Shown here piece after piece: positions 31,142 through 40,281 of a DNA stretch of 64,000 bases. Location of the stretch: the NCBI GenBank assembly GCA_963733195.1, contig CAVTCR010000063.1, positions 1 to 64,000 on the forward strand, read 5' to 3'. The translations under genes and the position numbers were made by a program. The notes beneath the pieces are model-generated. The model saw only the letters and a program-made list of their open reading frames with translations. It searched no databases and was not told where the DNA came from. The DNA comes from an uncultured delta proteobacterium (lineage in GTDB: Bacteria > Desulfobacterota > Binatia > Bin18). Positions within the stretch are counted from its first letter, which is position 1. Every line of letters starts with the position of its first letter.

Positions 31142-34100
31142 TCAGTATTCCTTCTGCTGTTTGATGATCAGGAAAATACGCTCCACCTCGGCCACGTCCT
31201 GCAAGATGTTATACAAGGCTTGCTTAATCACCCGTTCACGCGGTTCAATGCCGCGCCAGCCGTCAGGTCGGACGCGTTTGACAGTTTCATCGATCTTGAT
31301 GGCCAGTGCAAGCACATCCTCTTGTGTTGTCTCCTCGTGAATAGCAGGTGTTTCATCTACACCGCTCGTGCGTCCAGCACTTGCTTGAGGTTGTTATACA
31401 AGGCACGTCTGCCTGGCGTGTTCAGTTGTTCCGGCGTCTCCTCGGCCTTGCCAGCTTCTACTTGCTTGGCTAGCTCGGCGATCCGTTTGAGGTATTGTTC
31501 GTACTCCAGCGCCTTGGCTTTCCGGGCAGCGATGATCTCATCCAGCAGGGCGGACATTTTCTCGTAGTAGGCTGGGTCGTTGAGATGTTCCTTGATGATC
31601 TTGCTGCGGACGTTGTTCTCAATGGTTTCAGCCACTGCTTCCCTGTTCGCTCTCAGTCTACTTGGCAGGGAGTTGATGGCATTGGTGATGCCAGTGTTCA
31701 CAATCAGTTCCAGCAACGACATCTTGTCGAAGGGCGAGATGGTGCGCGGCTCTGCGGCTTCGATATACGTGTCGATGAGATGCCGCATATCTGCCTCGTA
31801 GGCTTTCAGGTCGAGCTTTTCGTTGGCAGCATTGCGGATGATGTCGCGGAGATCGAGGTACTCTTTAAGCTTTTGCTTGATGTAACGAACGTCGGCCTCG
31901 CTGTAGCCAGCGGCGTCCAGTTCGTCGGCAATGTTGGCGTAGGCACGCACCAATGCGACGGTTGCCTTGTAGAGCGCGGCACGTTGTGGCTCGCGTGCCT
32001 TCAGGTCTTCCGGGAGTTCGGTATTACCACAGAAGTAATGAATATACTCTAGCTCGCCCTTGGGCGGTTCCACAGGCTCGCAGAGCAGCGCCAGGGCTTC
32101 CAGCGCGTTGTCGAGTCGCTCGCGACCTTTGGCAAGGCGATTGTTCATCAGGACTTCGGGATCGGCCCCGCCCGCACTGTGATCCAGCTCGGAGGTGTAG
32201 ACCTGAAGGGCACCGGTGCCTTCCTCATTGACCAGTTTCTTGAACAGGTCCTTGTAATCCACGATGTAGCCGAATTCTTTATCCTCCCCGTCCAGCCGAT
32301 TGGTGCGACAGATCGCCTGGAACAAACCAGTGATCCTGCATACTCTTGTCAATGTAGAGGTAGGTACAGCTGGGCGCGTCAAAGCCGGTGAGCAGCTTGT
32401 CTACGACGATGAGGAGCTTCATGTTGGCCGGTTCTTTCTTGAACAGCTCCTTAGCCTTTTCCTCGTAGGTTTCGGTCTTCGTCATGCCGGGCTTGGCGTC
32501 GATGTTCTTCAGCAGTTCGGTGTAGGTGCTGTAAATAAACTCTTTGTCCGTCTCAGTGTTCGCGCCGGTGTCTTCGGTGGTGATGTCACGCGTCTGCGGA
32601 TTGTACGAGGTGACGACCGCGCAGCGGTCCCTGAAGACCGTCTTCTGGAAGAGCGTGTAGTACTTACAGGCTTCGTAGATACTCGACGCTACCAGCATGG
32701 CGGTGCCGCGGTTGTCGCTGAGGCGCGGCTTGACGCTGAAGTCGAAGACGATGTCGCTTACCACCCGTTCCATACGCGAGCGCGAACTGAGCACCTTCTG
32801 CATCGTGCCCCACTGCTTTTTCAGTTCGTCTTTCTGCCAGTCGTTGAGCCCTTTGGTCTTGGCCTCAAACCAGGCGTCAATCTTGCTCTGCGAGCCGAGA
32901 TGCTGGTCAATATCCCGCGCCTCATAGACCAGATCGAGCACCACCTCGTCTTCTACTGCTTCGCTGAACTTGTAGGTGTGGATGTACCCGCCGAAGACTT
33001 CCAGGCTGGTCTGCTTGTCCTTCTTGAGCAGCGGCGTGCCGGTGAAGCCGATGAAGACGGCATTAGGCATGATGGCCTTCATCACGCGGTGTAGCTTGCC
33101 GCTCTGGGTGCGATGGCATTCGTCGACGAAGACAAAAATCTCGCCTACTGTCTGGCTCGGCTGGGCTTGCAGTTCCTTGATGAACTGCTCGAAGTTGTCC
33201 ACGTCCTTCTTGCCGAACTTATGCACCAGGGAACAGAGCAGGCGCGGCGTGGCCTGCCCCAACTGGGTCATCAGCTCGCGCCCGCTTCTGGTCCGCTTGA
33301 TCGTCTCGCCTGTCTCGGTGAACACGTCTTCAATCTGTTTGTCCAATTCGTCACGATCGGTGACGATTGCTACACGAGCGTTGGGATTGTTTTCCAGAAT
33401 CCATTTGGCCAGCAGCACCATGACGATGCTTTTGCCGCTGCCTTGCGTATGCCAGATGATGCCGCTCTTGCGTTTGCGCACATGCTGCTGGGCGGCTTTG
33501 ACGCCGAAATACTGGTGCACGCGCGGCAGCTTTTTCATCCCGCCATCAAACAGCACGAAGTCGTGCATCAGCTCGATCAGCCGCGCTTTGTTGCACATCT
33601 TGAGCAGATACTTGTCGAGCTTGAAGCGACTGTTGTCTTCTTCGTCCTCTTTCCACTTGAGGAAGTACTTCTCTTCGGTGCCAATGGTGCCGTATTGCAG
33701 ACCTTCGGAGTCGTTGCCCGCGAAGATGAACTGCACGGTGCTAAAGAACCATGCGTTGAACTCGGGTTGCTGGTTGGAAATGTTCTGGCGGATGCCGTCG
33801 CCAATCGTAATGCTGCTGTTCTTGAGTTCCAGCACGCCTACGGCGATACCATTCACATACAGCACGATGTCAGGCCGCCGTTCGTGATTGCCGCGCAGTG
33901 TGACTTCTTCAGCGATGGCGAAGTCGTTCTTTTTCGGCTCCTTCCAGTTGATGAGATGGACGGTTTCGGTGACTTTGCCTGCTTCGATCTTCACCTGGCA
34001 CGCCATAGCGCAGCAGGTTGTACACGGCCTGATTGTTGCCGTACAGGCCGCGATTGTGATTGTCTGCCTCGGTGCGGAGTTTGTAGAGGGCGCTGCTGAT

Positions 34101-34276
34101 CTGTGCTGGGGTGTATCCACACTTTGTGAGGTAGGTCGTGAGCAACTCTTCCTCAATGTTGCTGTTGCCGTCACGGTCGCGTCCAATCGCCGAGGTAGCG
34201 ATAGCCGAGTTCATCGCGGAACAGGGCGATGACGCGGTTCTGCGTGGCGCGTTCAGGTTGGCCGATGTTACTGCAT
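31142..34276 (-). CDS. hsdR: type I restriction endonuclease subunit R (frameshifted in this sequence)
   Basis: [54 protein letters not shown]; pieces 33909-34331, 32279-34186, 31357-32382 and tail to 31142. Confidence 0.93.
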
Positions 34277-35623
34277 GATGGTCGCCTTTTACTTGCCAGT
34301 GGCCACCTTTGGCGGGGCCGATGCGTTGCAAGACCCCGTCAGACTTGAGTTTGGCAATCTGCTTCTCTACTCCACGGGTAGACAGTCCAAGCTTCTCCGC
34401 GAGTTCAGGAATGGTGATACGAGGATTCTCGCGAACGTGACGTATGATTTTCCCCGAACTTTTCCCCGAACTTTTCCCGAACTATCACCGAATTCGTTCC
34501 GGGTAATTTTCTGGGTAGTGTCCACTCGCGTTGGAAACACCACCCACAGTCCCCCATGTTCAAAGCGGAACTCCGGCGGGGACGCACCTTCCACCCTGCA
34601 GGCATTCACAATATGCTCGATCCCGCGTCCCCATAATTCGATCATCCCCGCGCGGAAGAACGCATTTGCCACATCCGGGTTATACGGTTTGGACGAATGT
34701 TTTCCTGTGAGCGTTTCCACTGTCCATCCTTCGTGGAGTTCACCGTCGTTCCAGAGCATGATCTTGTCTTCATATACACTGATCTGAATGGGTGCACCGC
34801 TGCTGTAATCCTTGTGAGCGACGGCGTTCAGTATCGCCTCGCGCAACGCTTCCTCCGGCACAGGGTACGTCTCCACGCGTTGTAGTCCTTCGTAGGAAAT
34901 CATCGCCTTCAGATACTTTGCTAGCAAGATTTCCATTGTCTGATTCACCTGCGTGAAGAGATCGCCGTGAATTTCATCGTGGTAGAGCAAATCGGCGTTC
35001 GTACGGAAATAGCCGATTTTCACATACGCCCCGGTGAAAAATCGCTCCGGGTCTGGGTGAAACAACAACACCGCCGCCCGCTTCAGATATGTGCCATCCA
35101 TCAGGTGCAGCTTGTCAATCAGAACGGCATCTGTCTCTTCCAGAAGCTCGGCTGACAAGCGCTTGCTACGCGTAGCGCGTTTGCGGAAATACGCCAGCGC
35201 CCGCTGATCCAAGTCTGCCAGCGAGACATACGGTACGGGCGCATCATCCCAATGCCGCCCCTGTTTGCGCATCAGAAAACGGTGAAGCGCCGCGCCCTTC
35301 AACTCCTGCTTGGTGCTGCCACTGCGGTAATGGTATTCGCCTTTGTAACTGATTGGGCTGGGGTACGGTTCCACCACGATTTCCAGCCAATCCTTGCCCC
35401 GTTCGGTGTGCAGATTCACCTCGACCATGATACCGAGAATGTCGCGCACCTGGTTCGGAATGTCCCCCAACAACTTCGCCGCGTTGTCTACACCAACAAC
35501 CTCGCCCCGGTCATTCTTGCCGATCATCAGCGTACCGCCCTGGGCATTGGCGAAGCCGCAAACCCACTTCAGGTATTCATCTCGCCAGTGCTGTTTCCAT
35601 TCGATGTGCTGATGCTCCTTCAT
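34270..35623 (-). CDS. AlbA_2 (Schlafen-like) + HATPase_c_4 + C-terminal HTH protein
   Basis: [52 protein letters not shown]; HTH tail [10 protein letters not shown] after a frameshift. Confidence 0.88.
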
Positions 35624-35628
35624 AATAG

Positions 35629-35684
35629 TGGAGAATGGAGAGTTGAAAATTGAGAATTGAAAATGGAGAGTTGAGAATGGAGAA
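35629..35684. repeat. 8 tandem heptamers T(T/G)GA(G/A)A(A/G)
   Basis: TGGAGAA TGGAGAG TTGAAAA TTGAGAA TTGAAAA TGGAGAG TTGAGAA TGGAGAA, abutting the stop codon of the four-helix-bundle gene. Confidence 0.95.
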
Positions 35685-36047
35685 TTACGAAGTCTGCTTT
35701 GATCCTTTGGATGTTTTGACAATTGAGACCAGCAGCTTGACAAGTTCTTCACTATCAGTGCGGATGGAGGCGAAGCTCTGATTGGCGATGTATTCGGATT
35801 GATGAAGCAACTCCAGCCAGTACAGTGTCTCGTTAGCTTCTTTGAGAGCGATAGTCATCTTGTGAATAAAGTCCGCTTTGCTTTCTGCATGCTCTGCTTC
35901 CCGTACCAGCGCACCAATGGCCGTGCCACTGCGCAGTACCTGGTTCGACAGAACAAATTCTTTCTTCTCACTTTGCAAGTGTCTGGCCAGCTTCACCACC
36001 CGCAACGCAAAGGCAAATGACTTATCCCTAATGATGTTCTCCCTCAT
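35685..36047 (-). CDS. four-helix-bundle protein (23S rRNA IVP / Avd-like family)
   Basis: KSFAFALRVVKL, QVLRSGTAIGALVREA..AESKADFIHK..IALKEANETLYWLELL. Confidence 0.95.
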   Translation of the reverse strand: MRENIIRDKSFAFALRVVKLARHLQSEKKEFVLSNQVLRSGTAIGALVREAEHAESKADFIHKMTIALKEANETLYWLELLHQSEYIANQSFASIRTDSEELVKLLVSIVKTSKGSKQTS

Positions 36048-36157
36048 TCTTAATTCCCATTCTTACTCTTCCATTTTTAATTCTCCATTTTCCATTTTCA
36101 CTTCTCCATCTCAACTTTCCACTTCTTCATTCTCAATTCTCCATTCTCAATTTTCCA
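36048..36157. repeat. about 15 degenerate heptamers, complement of the 35629-35684 array
   Basis: ...TTCTCAA TTCTCCA TTCTCAA TTTTCCA, filling the whole gap between the hsdS stop and the four-helix-bundle start. Confidence 0.9.
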
Positions 36158-37860
36158 TTAAACAAGCCTGACTTGTCCGGTGAGTAACACGTGCATCATG
36201 CCCTGCTTGAGCTGGCGGGCTTTGGCGAGCTTGGCTTCCAGCGCGTCGATCTCGGCGTCCATGTCGCTCAAGACCTCGGCAATGGCTTCTTGTTCGGAAC
36301 GCTAGGCGGGTGAAGGAATTACAAATCTTGCGAGATCTTGCGCCCGAGATTAGGCTGAGCTGCACCACCAGACCATTTTCTATCATCCGTGCACACAGGT
36401 TAGAATTGAAGTAATAACTCAGATAGTCAGTACGGAGACTGGCTGACTTAGGGCGAACAATTACCAGAGAGCTCGCGATTGCACCTTCGCCGAAATCTGG
36501 ACCAACGATTCCGAATTTGCCCAACGAACCGCGCAAACAGAACAGTATGTCCCCAGGCTTAAACTTCCCGCCGCCAAGGCGGTCATAGCTCTCTCTAGTG
36601 ATGTAGTCTAGTTCACTGCGATTGATATGACCTTCTGCAACGTGGCCTGCGTTAACGAAAGGGACTCCACTACGTGCGAATGACACTGATGATGGGTAAT
36701 TTTTTCCTCGATCCCCATTTTCGAAGACGCAAGTCTCGCTAAGCGTGACATCGATCCTCTGGTACCCCGCCCGGAAGAGAACGTATGCAAACCGATCTCC
36801 TAGAGATAATGCCAGCCATGCATCGGCTCTGGAAGTGCGTGCATTGACGATCGACGTAACCGACGCGGCTAAATACGATATCACCTTCTTCAAGTGCATA
36901 TACGCTGAGCCGCTTTCATCCGCATCTGATTCCGTAGGAAGATTAGAATGTACAACTCCGCGTTCACCTAAATGCTCCACAGTGATGATCGGAGTGCCGT
37001 CCACTAAGCATAGTCGCGTTCTATGTAACGCCGAGCCAAAACGGACCCGTTTCCACATCTGTGATCTTGCCAATCGTTGCTACATTGCCAATCCTCGGTA
37101 TCTCTCCTAACTTCGCTGTTTTGTCGCCCAGTGGTTCCACTGAACTCCGATAGCCGTTTCTTCCCGGTGAGCAATTCCTGCATGGCGCCTTGTTTGAGGT
37201 GGCGTTTTTTGGCGATGAGTTGCTCAAGGGATTCAATGAGGGCATCCGCATCGCTCAAGGCTTCGGCAATGGCTTCTTGTTCGGCTTTGGTGGCGGAAGA
37301 GGAATCGGGACTGTCTCGAACTTATCTTTTGGAAGATGTGCGTATGCTTGTCTGCGTGACAAATTCAGCAGAATGCCTTACGATGCCAGACTGCTGAACG
37401 AGTATCCAAGCATCAGGAAATCATGTAGCCACTGCTTTACATAAGCGCTGCATTAGCGCCATTCTGATCAGTAAGCATGTCTATCATCTGGACTAGCCAT
37501 ATACCGTGCCAGCACGCTCCAACTTTCTGCCTGCCATCGCAACAAGCGACGATCGCCACTTCGCAAGACTGAATATCGTCTGAAGATCAGCTTCTGGCGT
37601 CATCTGATCACGCCAATATCGCTCAGGTCAATACGTCCCCAATTGACATGGCTCTGATCGCCTGAGTAAAGGCTTCGTAATACCAACGTTATTTTCACGG
37701 AATCGAGCATCTTCCTCAACTGATTTAGAACTCGTCGCCGACAGTCGAGACCTCCCAATCCTCCGGAATCACCCCCACCTCGGTCTGCTTGTAACCCGGA
37801 GGAACTAATGGAGAATTGAGAGTTGAGAATTGAGAATTGTTTTCGTTCTTCATTTTCCAT
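36158..37860 (-). CDS. hsdS: type I R-M specificity subunit (heavily frameshifted, apparently more than two TRD segments)
   Basis: PGYKQTEVG.IPEDW start, central EQEAIAEALSDADALIESLEQLIAKKRHLKQGAMQELLTGKKRL, terminal helix ending RLV-stop. Confidence 0.88.
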
Positions 37861-37873
37861 TCTCCATTCTCAA
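37809..37873. repeat. inverted heptamer arrays (4+4 units, 9-nt loop) at hsdM/hsdS junction
   Basis: TGGAGAA TTGAGAG TTGAGAA TTGAGAA - TTGTTTTCG - TTCTTCA TTTTCCA TTCTCCA TTCTCAA. Confidence 0.95.
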
Positions 37874-40281
37874 TTAAGCGAAAATCCCATTTTCGCGAGA
37901 TGGCGGTTCACTTTCTGTTCCAGCTCGGCCACGCGGCTCGTCTGCTGCGGCAGCGGGGTTTCGTAGCGTTCGGCCAGTTCCTTCACGCGCTGGGTCAGGG
38001 CCTGGCTGATACGGTCCATCTCGCCGTGGATGCGTGCATCGAGTACGGCCAGCCATTTGTCATCCACGACCAACGTCTTGATCTCGGCCTCGGTGAGTTT
38101 GGGATATTGGGCATAGGCTTTCGCATCGAGTGCGGCCTCGGCGTCTTTGAGGCGCTTCTTGAGTTCGGACTCCTGGTCACTGAGCGTTAGCCAGGCATTT
38201 AAGAACCTCGGCTTCCTCTTTGGTCTCCTCATCTTTGGAGAACAGCCCTTTGATCTCCTTTAGGCGTGCGGCGATATTAGCCTTGTTCACCTTGTCCAAC
38301 GCGGAGAACGCACCTTCCTCACCACCGTGTTCTTCTTCCATCTCAGTCAACTGAGCGGTGACGCTTTCCAGCTCGGCCTCCAGCTTCGTGATGGCTTCTT
38401 GTTCTTTGGCAAAGTAGCGAGCGACGATGAGCGGCTTCGGCACGAGATCGCACGCCCAGCCCTTGTCCTTCTCTTTGCCTTTCTTGTCTTTCTCGATGAT
38501 ACGATAGGTCTCAGCCTTCCACCCATCAGTGGCGATCAGATAGCAGTCGTCCTGCATCGTCTCGGCCCAGTAATCCATCAGGTGCTGATAGACATCGTAT
38601 TCATCGATCAGCGGCTTGCCGCTGTAGTGCGCGAGCAGGTTTTCGGAAAGGCCTTTGATGATGTGTTTGGGGTGACACTCAACCGTTAGTCCCTTGAGTG
38701 CCTTGCGTGCGTCTACGCCAATCGGCAAACAAGGCGTTCATACTATCGGTGAACGTCACAAACTCCGCGATGCTCGTAGATGGTTTGTTTTAGTTGAGAG
38801 TGGAGAATGGATAATTGAGAATAGTGGGCGCGGAGCGGCTGGAAGAGTGCGGATTTGAGTCCAGGGAGAACGGACCAATATTTTTCGAGTGCATCGATGT
38901 CGCGGTTAGGGATGCCGCCGCGCAGGTGGCCTTCGATGTCTTGAATGTCTTCGGCCTCCTGACTGTCGATGTAACGCGGAATGTTGAGGTTGTATTCGTT
39001 CTTCTCGATCTCTGCGAACGGGACCATGCGCGCATATTTGGGAATCTCTACCTGTTTGGTGAAGACATCCACAATCTTGTGAATGTCCCTCGCACGCAAC
39101 CGGTTCTTGTTACCGTCCTTCATGTAGCCCGCGCTGGCGTCAATCATAAAAATGCCACGGCGCGTGTGGGCGTCTTCTTTGTCGATGACGATGATACAGG
39201 CCGGAATGCCAGTGCCGTAAAACAGGTTCGCGGGCAGGCCAATGATGCCCTTGATGTAGCCCTTGCGGATCAAGTTGCGGCGGATGTCGGCTTCGGCATT
39301 GCCACGGAACAACACCCCATGCGGCAGAATGCATGCACCTTTGCCGTGGCTCTTGAGCGAGCGCACGATGTGCAGCAGATAGGCGTAATCGCCCTGTTTG
39401 CCAGGCGGCACACCGAAGGACTTGAAACGCTCGTGCGGATCGTTGAGCGGATCGACACCGGTGCTCCAGCGCTTATCGCTGAACGGCGGATTCGCGACTA
39501 CGTAATCAAAGGTCTTGAGGATGTCGCCATCTTTGAACTTGGGGTCAGCCAGCGAGTTGCCTTGCACGATCAACGCCGTCGGGTTGTTGTGCAGCACCAT
39601 ATTCATCCGCGCCAGACCGGACGTCGCCGCGTCTTTATCCTGGCCGTACAGCGTGACCTGCGCGTGGGCTTCATCGGCGACTTTCAACAACAGCGAGCCG
39701 GAACCGCAGGTCGGGTCATAGACGGTGGTATCGTTCGTCGTCTTGGCATCGCGGATGCCGATGATCTGCGCAATGATGCGGCTGACCTCGGCAGGCGTGT
39801 AGAACTGCCCCTTGCTCTTGCCGCTATCCACGGCGAAGTGCTGCATCAGATATTCATAGGCATCGCCGAGAATGTCATCACCGTCTGCGCGGTTCTTGCT
39901 GAAATCGAGCCGCTTATCTTCAAAGATGGCGATGAGGTCTGTTAGTCGCTCCACCATCTCCTTGCCGCTGCCGAGCTTGGTGGCGTCGTTGAAGTCCGGC
40001 ATGTCGGACAGCTTGTTGGCATTGGCCAGCGGCGCGATGATCTTCTTGTTGATCTGGTCACCGATGTCAGGTTTGCCCTTGAGCGCGACCATGTCCTTGA
40101 AGCTGGCGCCCTCGGGAATGGTGATCGGCGCGAAAGGCACGCCGGCATATTTGTCGCTGACATATTTGATGAACAACAGGACCAGCACGTAGTCCTTGTA
40201 TTGGCTGGCATCCATGCCGCCGCGCAGCGCATCGCAGCTCGACCACAGGGACGAGTAGAGTTCCGATTTCTTCAGGGCCAT
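37870..40281 (-). CDS. hsdM: type I R-M methyltransferase subunit M, long form (frameshifted)
   Basis: LRGGMDASQYKDY, GQFYTP, YDPTCGSG, ANPPF (N6-adenine), NLNIPRYI; tail LAERYETPLP. Confidence 0.95.
38794..38821. repeat. 4 heptamers in-frame inside hsdM
   Basis: TTGAGAG TGGAGAA TGGATAA TTGAGAA, read as YSQLSILHSQL. Confidence 0.8.

Follow-up and report, generated by a model that had tools for sequence, protein, structure and literature searches.

A PF05635 gene between complementary heptamer arrays in an uncultured Binatia genome, and the widespread unit to which it belongs

To our knowledge, no function has been found for the protein family PF05635 (23S_rRNA_IVP), of which structures have been solved, since the intervening sequences of ribosomal RNA were described. 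Heptamer repeats, which in cyanobacteria include the heptamer simple-sequence repeats known as short tandemly repeated repetitive (STRR) sequences, are, in many bacteria, more common than any other long simple-sequence repeat, and they too lack an explanation. Here, we describe a locus at which the two meet. We analyzed a stretch of 64,000 nucleotides ("the window") from the genome of an uncultured member of the Binatia (Desulfobacterota; GCA_963733195.1, contig CAVTCR010000063.1, positions 1-64,000). Within it, a gene for a PF05635 protein, which we will term IVP (intervening sequence protein), lies between two complementary heptamer arrays, or arms, at the junction of an hsdS gene and an AlbA_2 gene. 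We are highly confident that the gene and its arms make up one discrete, widespread, and horizontally spread unit. There is equally little doubt about the joint picture: the unit is all-or-none; its arms pair in a locus-specific way at more than 100 loci and hug the open reading frame (ORF); it lies co-directionally in operons; and ORF-less hairpins are found at the same kind of site.

The closest described system is the intervening sequence (IVS) of 23S rRNA, which occurs in Coxiella burnetii, Leptospira, and others. As presented in the sections of PMC4990558 on the Coxiella element, the IVS is a 428-nt insert in helix 45 with an S23p ORF in a stem-loop; the insert's terminal stem is 28 bp long, RNase III excises the insert, and the ATG is preceded by two or three heptamers in tandem and one degenerate unit. 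The element in the window is like these IVSs, as far as those sections describe them, in several respects: a PF05635/S23p gene lies in the loop of a terminal complementary stem, variable-copy tandem heptamers come directly before the ATG, the spread is patchy and horizontal, and the ORF is often decaying. In contrast, it lies in the spacer of an mRNA operon (hsdS/AlbA_2) rather than in an rRNA helix, and both of its arms are long heptamer arrays. Also, RNase III cutting has been shown for the rRNA IVSs, whereas here it is presumed. Because the element has the gene and the enclosing stem but does not reside in 23S rRNA, we regard it as a variant of the IVS and not as a member. None of 116 IVP loci matched an rRNA operon, and the 23S genes of this genome have normal lengths (2960 and 2976 nt).

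The arms also resemble the heptamer arrays of intergenic DNA. The passages of PMC4692102 on such repeats report, for Xanthomonas, GGGAATC arrays in direct and inverted pairs (70-75 convergent ones) and, for Nostoc, GGGGA(C/T)T arrays, and the corresponding passages of PMC4679880 report TAACTGA arrays upstream of start codons in Beggiatoaceae and cyanobacteria. The likeness lies in period-7 arrays in spacers, often as convergent stem-loop pairs and with a copy number that varies between strains. The arrays in the window consist of tandem 7-nt units in intergenic DNA, as judged by Tandem Repeats Finder (TRF), and are STRR-like in that sense. The difference is that here the arrays bracket a gene, and that ORF-less hairpins share the niche of that gene. 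In the passages of these two papers just mentioned, heptamer repeats are not linked to a PF05635 gene, and "S23" has 0 occurrences in PMC4692102. In the full-text literature (supplements and subscription journals lie outside it), we found no description of PF05635 genes outside of rRNA that are flanked by inverted heptamer arrays.

Anatomy of the cassette

The array-ORF-array unit reads on the window's minus strand and has three parts:

36048..36157, minus strand: 5' arm (mRNA sense), a purine-rich heptamer array of ~15 units (TRF, direct repeats, sequence)
35685..36047, minus strand: IVP gene, 120 aa, a four-helix-bundle protein (23S_rRNA_IVP), in the hairpin loop (PF05635, TIGR02436, PDB 2rld)
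35629..35685, minus strand: 3' arm (mRNA sense), pyrimidine-rich, 8 heptamer units (TRF, motif scan, inverted pairs, RNA fold)

The gene runs from an ATG at 36045-36047 to a stop codon at 35685-35687. An initial annotation of this DNA had taken its product for a four-helix-bundle protein of the IVP/Avd kind, and this was correct: it matches PF05635 (E=3e-26), TIGR02436 (E=3e-30), and PDB 2rld (E=3e-41), which is its nearest solved relative (one entry with five chains). Among cluster representatives at 50% identity, 11205 match the protein at E<=0.001. Searches of PADLOC and PHROGs with IVP gave no match.

The same annotation described eight heptamers at the stop codon and a complementary array that reaches from the hsdS stop to the start codon, and we find both. 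TRF reports the downstream array at 35629-35685 (period 7, 8.1 copies, consensus TGGAGAA), and a motif scan finds 8 in-phase T[TG]GA[GA]A[AG] units on the plus strand (35629-35684) that abut the IVP stop codon. TRF reports the upstream array at 36080-36159 with 11.4 copies at period 7, and at 36045-36159 at period 14. It occupies all 110 nt (15.7 units) between the C-terminal stop of hsdS (36158-36160) and the IVP ATG, and as the 5' arm of the transcript it is rich in GGAG and AUG motifs. On the other side of the gene, the ATG of AlbA_2 (35621-35623) comes 5 nt past the downstream array.

The two arrays can pair in slipped registers with the ORF in the loop, as had been suggested. We found 14 array-to-array pairings of up to 57 nt (with 72% complementarity over 57 nt, 80% over 46 nt, and 87% over 30 nt, among others), and when a 591-nt stretch is folded as RNA, the arrays pair with each other in both the minimum free energy (MFE) and the centroid structure. 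A scan of positions 34000-39500 against Rfam gave no family at E<=0.1.

To compare loci, we scored the complementarity of the two flanks of each ORF. Across 7364 ORFs of this genome, the median score is 7 and the 99th percentile is 12, and we used a score of at least 12 (1% of ORFs) as the cut-off. The IVP gene in the window scores 26.5, which ranks second among the 7364 ORFs and is above all 200 shuffles of its flanks (maximum 11).

Gene and arms as one unit across genomes

At all 8 of the PF05635 loci in this genome, complementary arms abut the ORF, and each locus has a different heptamer: GGGGTCG-like (G-rich), GAGTCTA, GGATAAG, TAGGGAA, GACTGAG, GGTTCAA, GGTGTTG, and the TGGAGAA type of the window. 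These loci score 13.5-26.5, and 6 of the 8 exceed all 200 of their shuffles. (For frameshifted copies of the gene, we placed the flanks by hand for scoring.) Several of the copies are pseudogenes, and their arms persist.

We then consider other genomes. PF05635 matches were found in 23 of the 41 genomes that we searched, this genome included. From the relatives we took 29 loci, dropped one (L032) that had no tblastn match, and scored 28, of which 23 reached the cut-off. The pairing is specific to the locus: when arms of different loci are set against each other, a score of at least 12 is seen for 0 of 56 pairs within this genome and for 5.4% of 756 pairs among the relatives. For example, cassettes at the junction of the pyruvate dehydrogenase (PDH) E1 alpha and beta genes in five genera (L008, L017, L021, L024, L027) have different heptamers and keep their pairing, and different heptamers still pair at a junction that L006, L039, and L025 have in common (three genomes, two of the same genus). 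In the same-genus genomes G001 and G002, only the arrays have matches; the restriction-modification operon and the cassette were not found there.

Searching with the IVP protein of the window gave 529 relatives. The best 80 of these, at 59-86% identity, come from Desulfobacteraceae, Nitrospira, Acidobacteriota, Methylococcaceae, many Bacteroidota, the cyanobacteria Okeania and Dapis, Chlorobiota, Planctomycetes, Omnitrophota, and others. Cultured carriers of cassettes of the window type include Flavobacterium or Maribacter isolates (L104, L107, L111, L083); among the control genomes, Bacteroides thetaiotaomicron alone has a PF05635 match. Both flanks were available for 76 of the best 80, and 63 of the 76, from a dozen or more phyla, score at least 12. 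However, the arms of these 76 are of one heptamer class, and cross-locus pairs are high in 35%, so this subset supports the co-transfer of gene and arms and not their covariation. Against a background of 1% of ORFs, the enrichment of complementary flanks around homologues is strong in all three sets.

Two cassettes with heptamer arms (L034 and L019) lie immediately upstream of a cas2-like gene. This agrees with the published occurrence of such genes in cas loci, where 18 genes of the PF05635 kind are given in the relevant part of PMC3936711.

Empty alleles were predicted for the junction of hsdS and AlbA_2, and they exist. Among metagenome contigs with AlbA_2 homologues (55-71% identity), 56 have at least 400 nt upstream of that gene. 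Two of these carry IVP and arrays (L151 and L152; their values are identical, and the same sequence may have been sampled twice). An ORF-less hairpin is present in one (L148), and the remaining 53 have neither the gene with arrays nor a hairpin. When 24 of these loci were inspected, hsdS and AlbA_2 were found to overlap by ATGA in L126, L169, and L190 and to be separated by 5 nt in L181. As cassette-free relatives have the ATGA overlap, the cassette splits a translationally coupled pair. The filled order, hsdS-IVP-AlbA_2, is common to L040, L042, and L043. With the flank enrichment, these empty alleles support the proposal that array, ORF, and array are a single discrete cassette. A comparison of the window junction with the empty L126, L169, and L190 showed no visible target-site duplication; in L040, the end of hsdS seems, by eye, to be partly repeated on both sides.

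Separately, we noticed that in L040 and L046, the frame of hsdS continues into the 5' arm, and in L046 (1440-1510) no stop codon separates it from the IVP gene. In such relatives, the cassette rewrites the C-terminus of its upstream neighbor.

The anatomy follows common rules, which we derived from 91 cassettes with an arm score of at least 12. The 5' arm ends a median of 8 nt before the ATG, and in 50/91 loci it overlaps the ATG or stops no more than 10 nt short of it; from the stop codon to the 3' arm, the median distance is 6 nt. The aligned arms have a median length of 30 nt. In 86 of the 91 cassettes, G outnumbers C in the 5' arm, and in 72 this arm is purine-rich. Of 332 TRF rows in 224 flanks, 200 have period 7 and a further 78 have period 14 or 21. 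The arms have a median of 4.6 units and a mode of 5 (59/177 arms); the window's arms (8 and ~15 units) are outliers. As for the neighboring genes, at 96 loci with clear orientations the upstream gene is co-directional with IVP in 86, both neighbors are co-directional in 70, and IVP is antisense to both in 5.

The arrays around the IVP gene are real, but they are not a local peculiarity, as one might have concluded from the window alone: they are part of ~1200 arrays across the genome, mostly ORF-less hairpins. In this genome (6.95 Mb, 54% G+C), 1160 of 3551 TRF rows have period 7, merging to 1239 arrays. Neighboring arrays are inverted in 107/1018 pairs, and 77 of these have loops of up to 120 nt, which we term ORF-less hairpins. 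In contrast, inverted pairs with loops of 340-470 nt number six, and five of those contain a PF05635 gene. Reading either strand, the G-rich arm comes first in 69 of the 77 ORF-less hairpins and a C-rich arm in 1. Their arms have a mode of 4-5 units and then fall off sharply, as do arrays genome-wide past five units (253 arrays of 5 units versus 55 of 6). Simple slippage explains neither the polarity of the hairpins nor the drop above five units.

How are the ORF-less hairpins related to the cassettes? Among those with two neighboring genes, 63/76 lie between tandem genes, starting a median of 3 nt past the upstream stop codon, which means that they share the cassettes' niche. They did not arise by the copying of one master element, as 27 hairpins of related type all differ in their loops and in the order of their units. 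They are most simply read as cassettes minus the gene, either by loss or because the same module exists without it. No remnants of IVP were found in the 12 loops of 60-240 nt in which we sought them, and the only matches, both weak, lie in a 655-nt loop of C28 (E=0.002) and a 342-nt loop of C50 (E=0.15), so a path of decay from cassette to hairpin is without documented intermediates here. Across relatives, arrays and PF05635 genes tend weakly to occur together, in a sample that is too small: we counted 27 arrays in 196 kb for the 23 genomes that have PF05635 and 11 in 139 kb for the 18 without a match.

Other ORFs with high flank scores are either insertion sequence elements with terminal repeats or genes flanked, in both spacers, by a whole hairpin belonging to one family. 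A complete hairpin in each spacer is a distinct architecture from one arm per side. Three further observations concern arrays elsewhere in the genome. First, near-identical inverted array pairs at C48:29315-31493 and C74:17821-19801 each enclose ~2 kb. Second, the interior of the C48 pair encodes the same peptide on both strands, so this region could be either a large palindrome or an artefact of assembly. Third, ORFs at C50:105180-106790 (536 aa) and C81:149366-150247 (293 aa) lie between single complementary CTACTGA / TCAGTAG arms, with an arm order opposite to that of the IVP cassettes.

RNA stem, DNA module, or ring protein

What does the unit do? The explanation that we favor, at roughly even chances, is that the ~530 bp at 35629-36157 are an IVS-type cassette: a promoterless PF05635 gene in a hairpin loop, inserted in the sense direction between the stop codon of hsdS and the start codon of AlbA_2. 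The cassette would be transcribed as part of the operon mRNA, and its arms would form a stem, imperfectly paired over 30-57 bp, in which the ribosome-binding region of IVP is buried. RNase III would then cut within the stem, by likeness to the ORF-bearing IVSs of 23S rRNA. Such a cut would excise the cassette RNA and would uncouple the upstream and downstream cistrons, which are otherwise coupled through the ATGA overlap. We place the narrower claim that the stem forms at the RNA level and is processed by RNase III, which draws on that analogy, just short of an even bet.

The genome does contain a gene for RNase III (rnc, C47:20398-21042), and a heptamer hairpin (C47:20288-20366) exactly fills the spacer from a MiaB-like gene to the rnc start codon. 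Arrays or hairpins were present upstream of rnc in 7/30 relatives (five genera, with different heptamers), versus 1/30 for ruvB and 1/29 for era as controls (Fisher p=0.006, which is overstated, as the enrichment rests on kin from 5 genera and on two control genes). In E. coli, RNase III regulates the decay of its own mRNA (as stated in the part of PMC5371410 on this regulation). The hairpins in the rnc leader are a lead, not a demonstration, that heptamer hairpins are substrates for RNase III.

Besides the narrow base of the rnc comparison, several points weigh against our proposal. First, the fold of the whole 591-nt RNA has a z-score of only −1.97, and the arms of the window are unequal (~15 versus 8 units) and far above the modal 5. 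Second, if the stem were selected in the sense RNA, then we would expect G·U to be preferred over A·C among its mismatches. Instead, the stems of the 91 cassettes contain 99 G·U and 92 A·C mismatches (p=0.66), alongside 2461 Watson-Crick pairs and 208 transversions, and the ORF-less hairpins between tandem genes (n=63) contain 44 of each. This argues against selection purely at the RNA level; it agrees with a role of the pairing in DNA, or with a renewal of arms that outpaces selection. Third, we found no fixed register of pairing relative to the start and stop codons: the Watson-Crick fraction is 0.28-0.38 at all offsets, with a faint period-7 ripple. Fourth, in the Coxiella IVS, the cut removes the Shine-Dalgarno region, and in the view of its authors the protein is unlikely to be produced (section of PMC4990558 on its expression). 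Finally, the host operon in the window is broken (see below), so any regulatory role at this site may be moot.

Because the mismatches lack an RNA-type wobble bias, it is probably at the DNA level, at least in part, that the arms are held complementary, by slippage of units shared by both arms or by selection or conversion within the palindrome. Arm-to-arm copying would be expected to keep the arms alike, and their lengths vary independently (15 versus 8 units in the window and 3 versus 7 in L025).

A second possibility is that the unit is a mobile or recombining module of DNA, with the arms acting as a cruciform or a replication hairpin that mediates insertion, excision, or templated copying, with IVP as a helper, and with the RNA stem as a by-product. 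We consider this rather unlikely. In its favor, the unit is present or absent as a whole at one junction, and one subfamily of the protein travels with one heptamer type over at least a dozen phyla (59-86% identity). The parity of G·U and A·C is what one would predict for pairing that is needed in DNA or arises by copying, and the drop in arm length above five units is consistent with limits on the length of palindromes. However, no transposase, integrase, or reverse transcriptase lies in or next to the cassette, although no search was aimed at integrases. The eight copies in this genome differ in protein and heptamer, which implies that there was no recent burst, and we see no sign of recent transposition. 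That no target-site duplication was seen at the window junction and that the arms expand independently, which is unlike arm-to-arm copying, also count against a DNA module. So does the rarity of units that are antisense to both neighbors (5/96), which indicates that inversions between the arms seldom occur or are selected against.

Two families of mobile or captured elements are worth comparing with the cassette at this point. MITEs (miniature transposable elements with inverted repeats) and REPINs (paired repetitive extragenic palindromes) are likewise short, hairpin-forming, non-autonomous intergenic elements with many copies. But the cassettes have no common consensus or loop, the heptamer changes from locus to locus, and neither a cognate transposase nor a RAYT (the transposase associated with such palindromes) was identified. 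We rejected a MITE-like family as an explanation, since the arms differ at all 8 loci and the 27 related hairpins, unlike copies of a MITE, share neither a loop nor an order of units. Integron cassettes, too, consist of a small promoterless ORF with a structured element, inserted in the sense direction and expressed from an upstream promoter. They differ in having one 3' attC rather than two complementary arms around the ORF, and the insertions described here do not form an array of cassettes but are scattered at operon junctions.

A third possibility is that IVP is a ring protein in the manner of TRAP. A pentamer of IVP would wrap a single-stranded arm of five units, with one heptamer for each subunit, and would thereby control the stem and the translation of its own gene and of the neighboring genes. 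This idea, which is compatible with either the RNA or the DNA reading, strikes us as improbable. It would account for the modal five units of cassette arms and the 4-5 of ORF-less hairpin arms, and for a 5' arm that so often touches or nearly touches the ATG. It also draws on the five chains of 2rld, on a Xanthomonas campestris homologue that PMC4990558, in its structural passage, reports as a homopentameric ring, and on the relative Avd, which the pertinent part of PMC10053308 describes as a nucleic-acid-binding accessory protein. However, the heptamers vary widely, even between orthologous proteins, so that a sequence-specific reading would need rapid co-evolution. Furthermore, the window has arms of 15 and 8 units, not 5, and the arms are still there beside the several copies in this genome that are pseudogenes. 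TRAP is also a small ring-shaped protein with a periodic RNA array by a start codon, but its fold is unrelated, and its likeness to IVP is numerical only (five units and five subunits). The agreement between five units per arm and a pentamer fits as a numerical match and no more.

The kinship with Avd raises the question of whether IVP could serve a retroelement. IVP-type proteins are homologous to Avd, the accessory protein of diversity-generating retroelements (as set out in the same part of PMC10053308): the four-helix-bundle fold is homologous, and solved relatives assemble as pentamers. In contrast to those elements, there is no reverse transcriptase nearby: the genome has 12 RVT_1 matches, none of them on C63 or on the other 7 contigs with IVP genes (TR/VR pairs, the template and variable repeats, were not searched for). 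We rejected IVP as the Avd of a retroelement, as none of the eight IVP contigs has a reverse transcriptase.

It is tempting to combine these ideas, although we regard the combination as a long shot. PF05635 and the arrays would be one element, in which the ring reads five-unit arms; the folded arms would be an RNase III site that makes the element harmless in any transcript, be it in an rRNA helix or an operon spacer; and the thousands of intergenic heptamer hairpins in bacteria, including regulatory ones such as that in the rnc leader, would be fossil or domesticated cassettes.

Finally, with 1239 merged arrays and 77 short-loop hairpins in the genome, and with some ordinary genes scoring high between complete hairpins of one family, the gene might merely happen to sit between two heptamer-rich spacers, but this is so improbable that it can be set aside, given that all 8 PF05635 loci have single complementary arms at the ends of the ORF, that 5 of the 6 inverted pairs with loops of 340-470 nt contain such a gene, that the pattern is repeated in unrelated phyla, and that empty junctions are without arrays.

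An apparently decaying host operon and what cassettes mean for their neighbors

According to domain matches, the order of genes in the minus-strand operon around the cassette is hsdM, hsdS, cassette, AlbA_2, hsdR. The features outside of the cassette are:

37870..40281, minus strand: long-form hsdM in three overlapping ORFs (40281..38743, 38728..38177, 38232..37870) (N6_Mtase, HsdM_N)
37807..37875, no strand assigned: ORF-less hairpin of the same heptamer type, with a 33-nt arm, a 6-nt loop, and a 30-nt arm (TRF 37807-37839 and 37846-37875)
36158..36304, minus strand: conserved C-terminal segment of hsdS, 47 codons, stop at 36158-36160 (sequence, translation, motif in relatives)
34367..35623, minus strand: AlbA_2 / HATPase_c_4 gene, the downstream neighbor (PF04326, PF13749)
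31357..34186, minus strand: hsdR in two overlapping ORFs (34186..32279, 32382..31357) (domain matches)

The identification of hsdS as the upstream gene holds for its conserved C-terminus, which ends at 36158-36160 and whose motif recurs in L126, L169, L190, and L181, but the gene is not a continuous frame. An in-frame TAG at 36302-36304 severs this segment from the remainder of the gene, and the 308-aa ORF upstream (36147-37073) is in a different frame from the segment. Also, the match to an S subunit is weak (NF047740). The other genes are broken as well. In L078, a single hsdM ORF spans N6_Mtase and the regions that match both of the later pieces in the window. In hsdR, the first ORF has HSDR_N, SWI2_SNF2, and T1R_D3-like domains, and the second has a T1R_D3-like tail. 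The domains of hsdM, hsdS, and hsdR are all found, and none of the three genes is intact. The type I restriction operon (31357-40281) looks degraded and now decaying, although assembly errors in this draft genome may explain the breaks.

The ORF-less hairpin at 37807-37875 comes directly after the stop codon of hsdM. At the homologous junction of L078 there is a full IVP cassette, followed by another hairpin. We also considered whether an array-like stretch of four heptamer units at 38794-38821 could be an orphan arm or the remnant of a cassette. We rejected this, as the stretch is hsdM coding sequence and aligns residue by residue with L078. The first break in the frame of hsdM is just downstream of it. 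Elsewhere in the operon, the 3' part of the AlbA_2 gene contains a 12-nt tandem repeat (34448-34492, 3.1 copies, 96% matches).

For annotation, it matters that these cassettes break translational coupling and that they extend or fuse the frames of neighboring genes. They are also frequent in restriction and CRISPR loci, where the PF05635 gene has been mistaken for a component of the system. More broadly, PF05635 is a very large family, and the family and the heptamer repeats have been two separate puzzles. They are now tied to each other by their packaging into one cassette, by its gain and loss as a unit at operon junctions, and by the niche that it shares with the heptamer hairpins.

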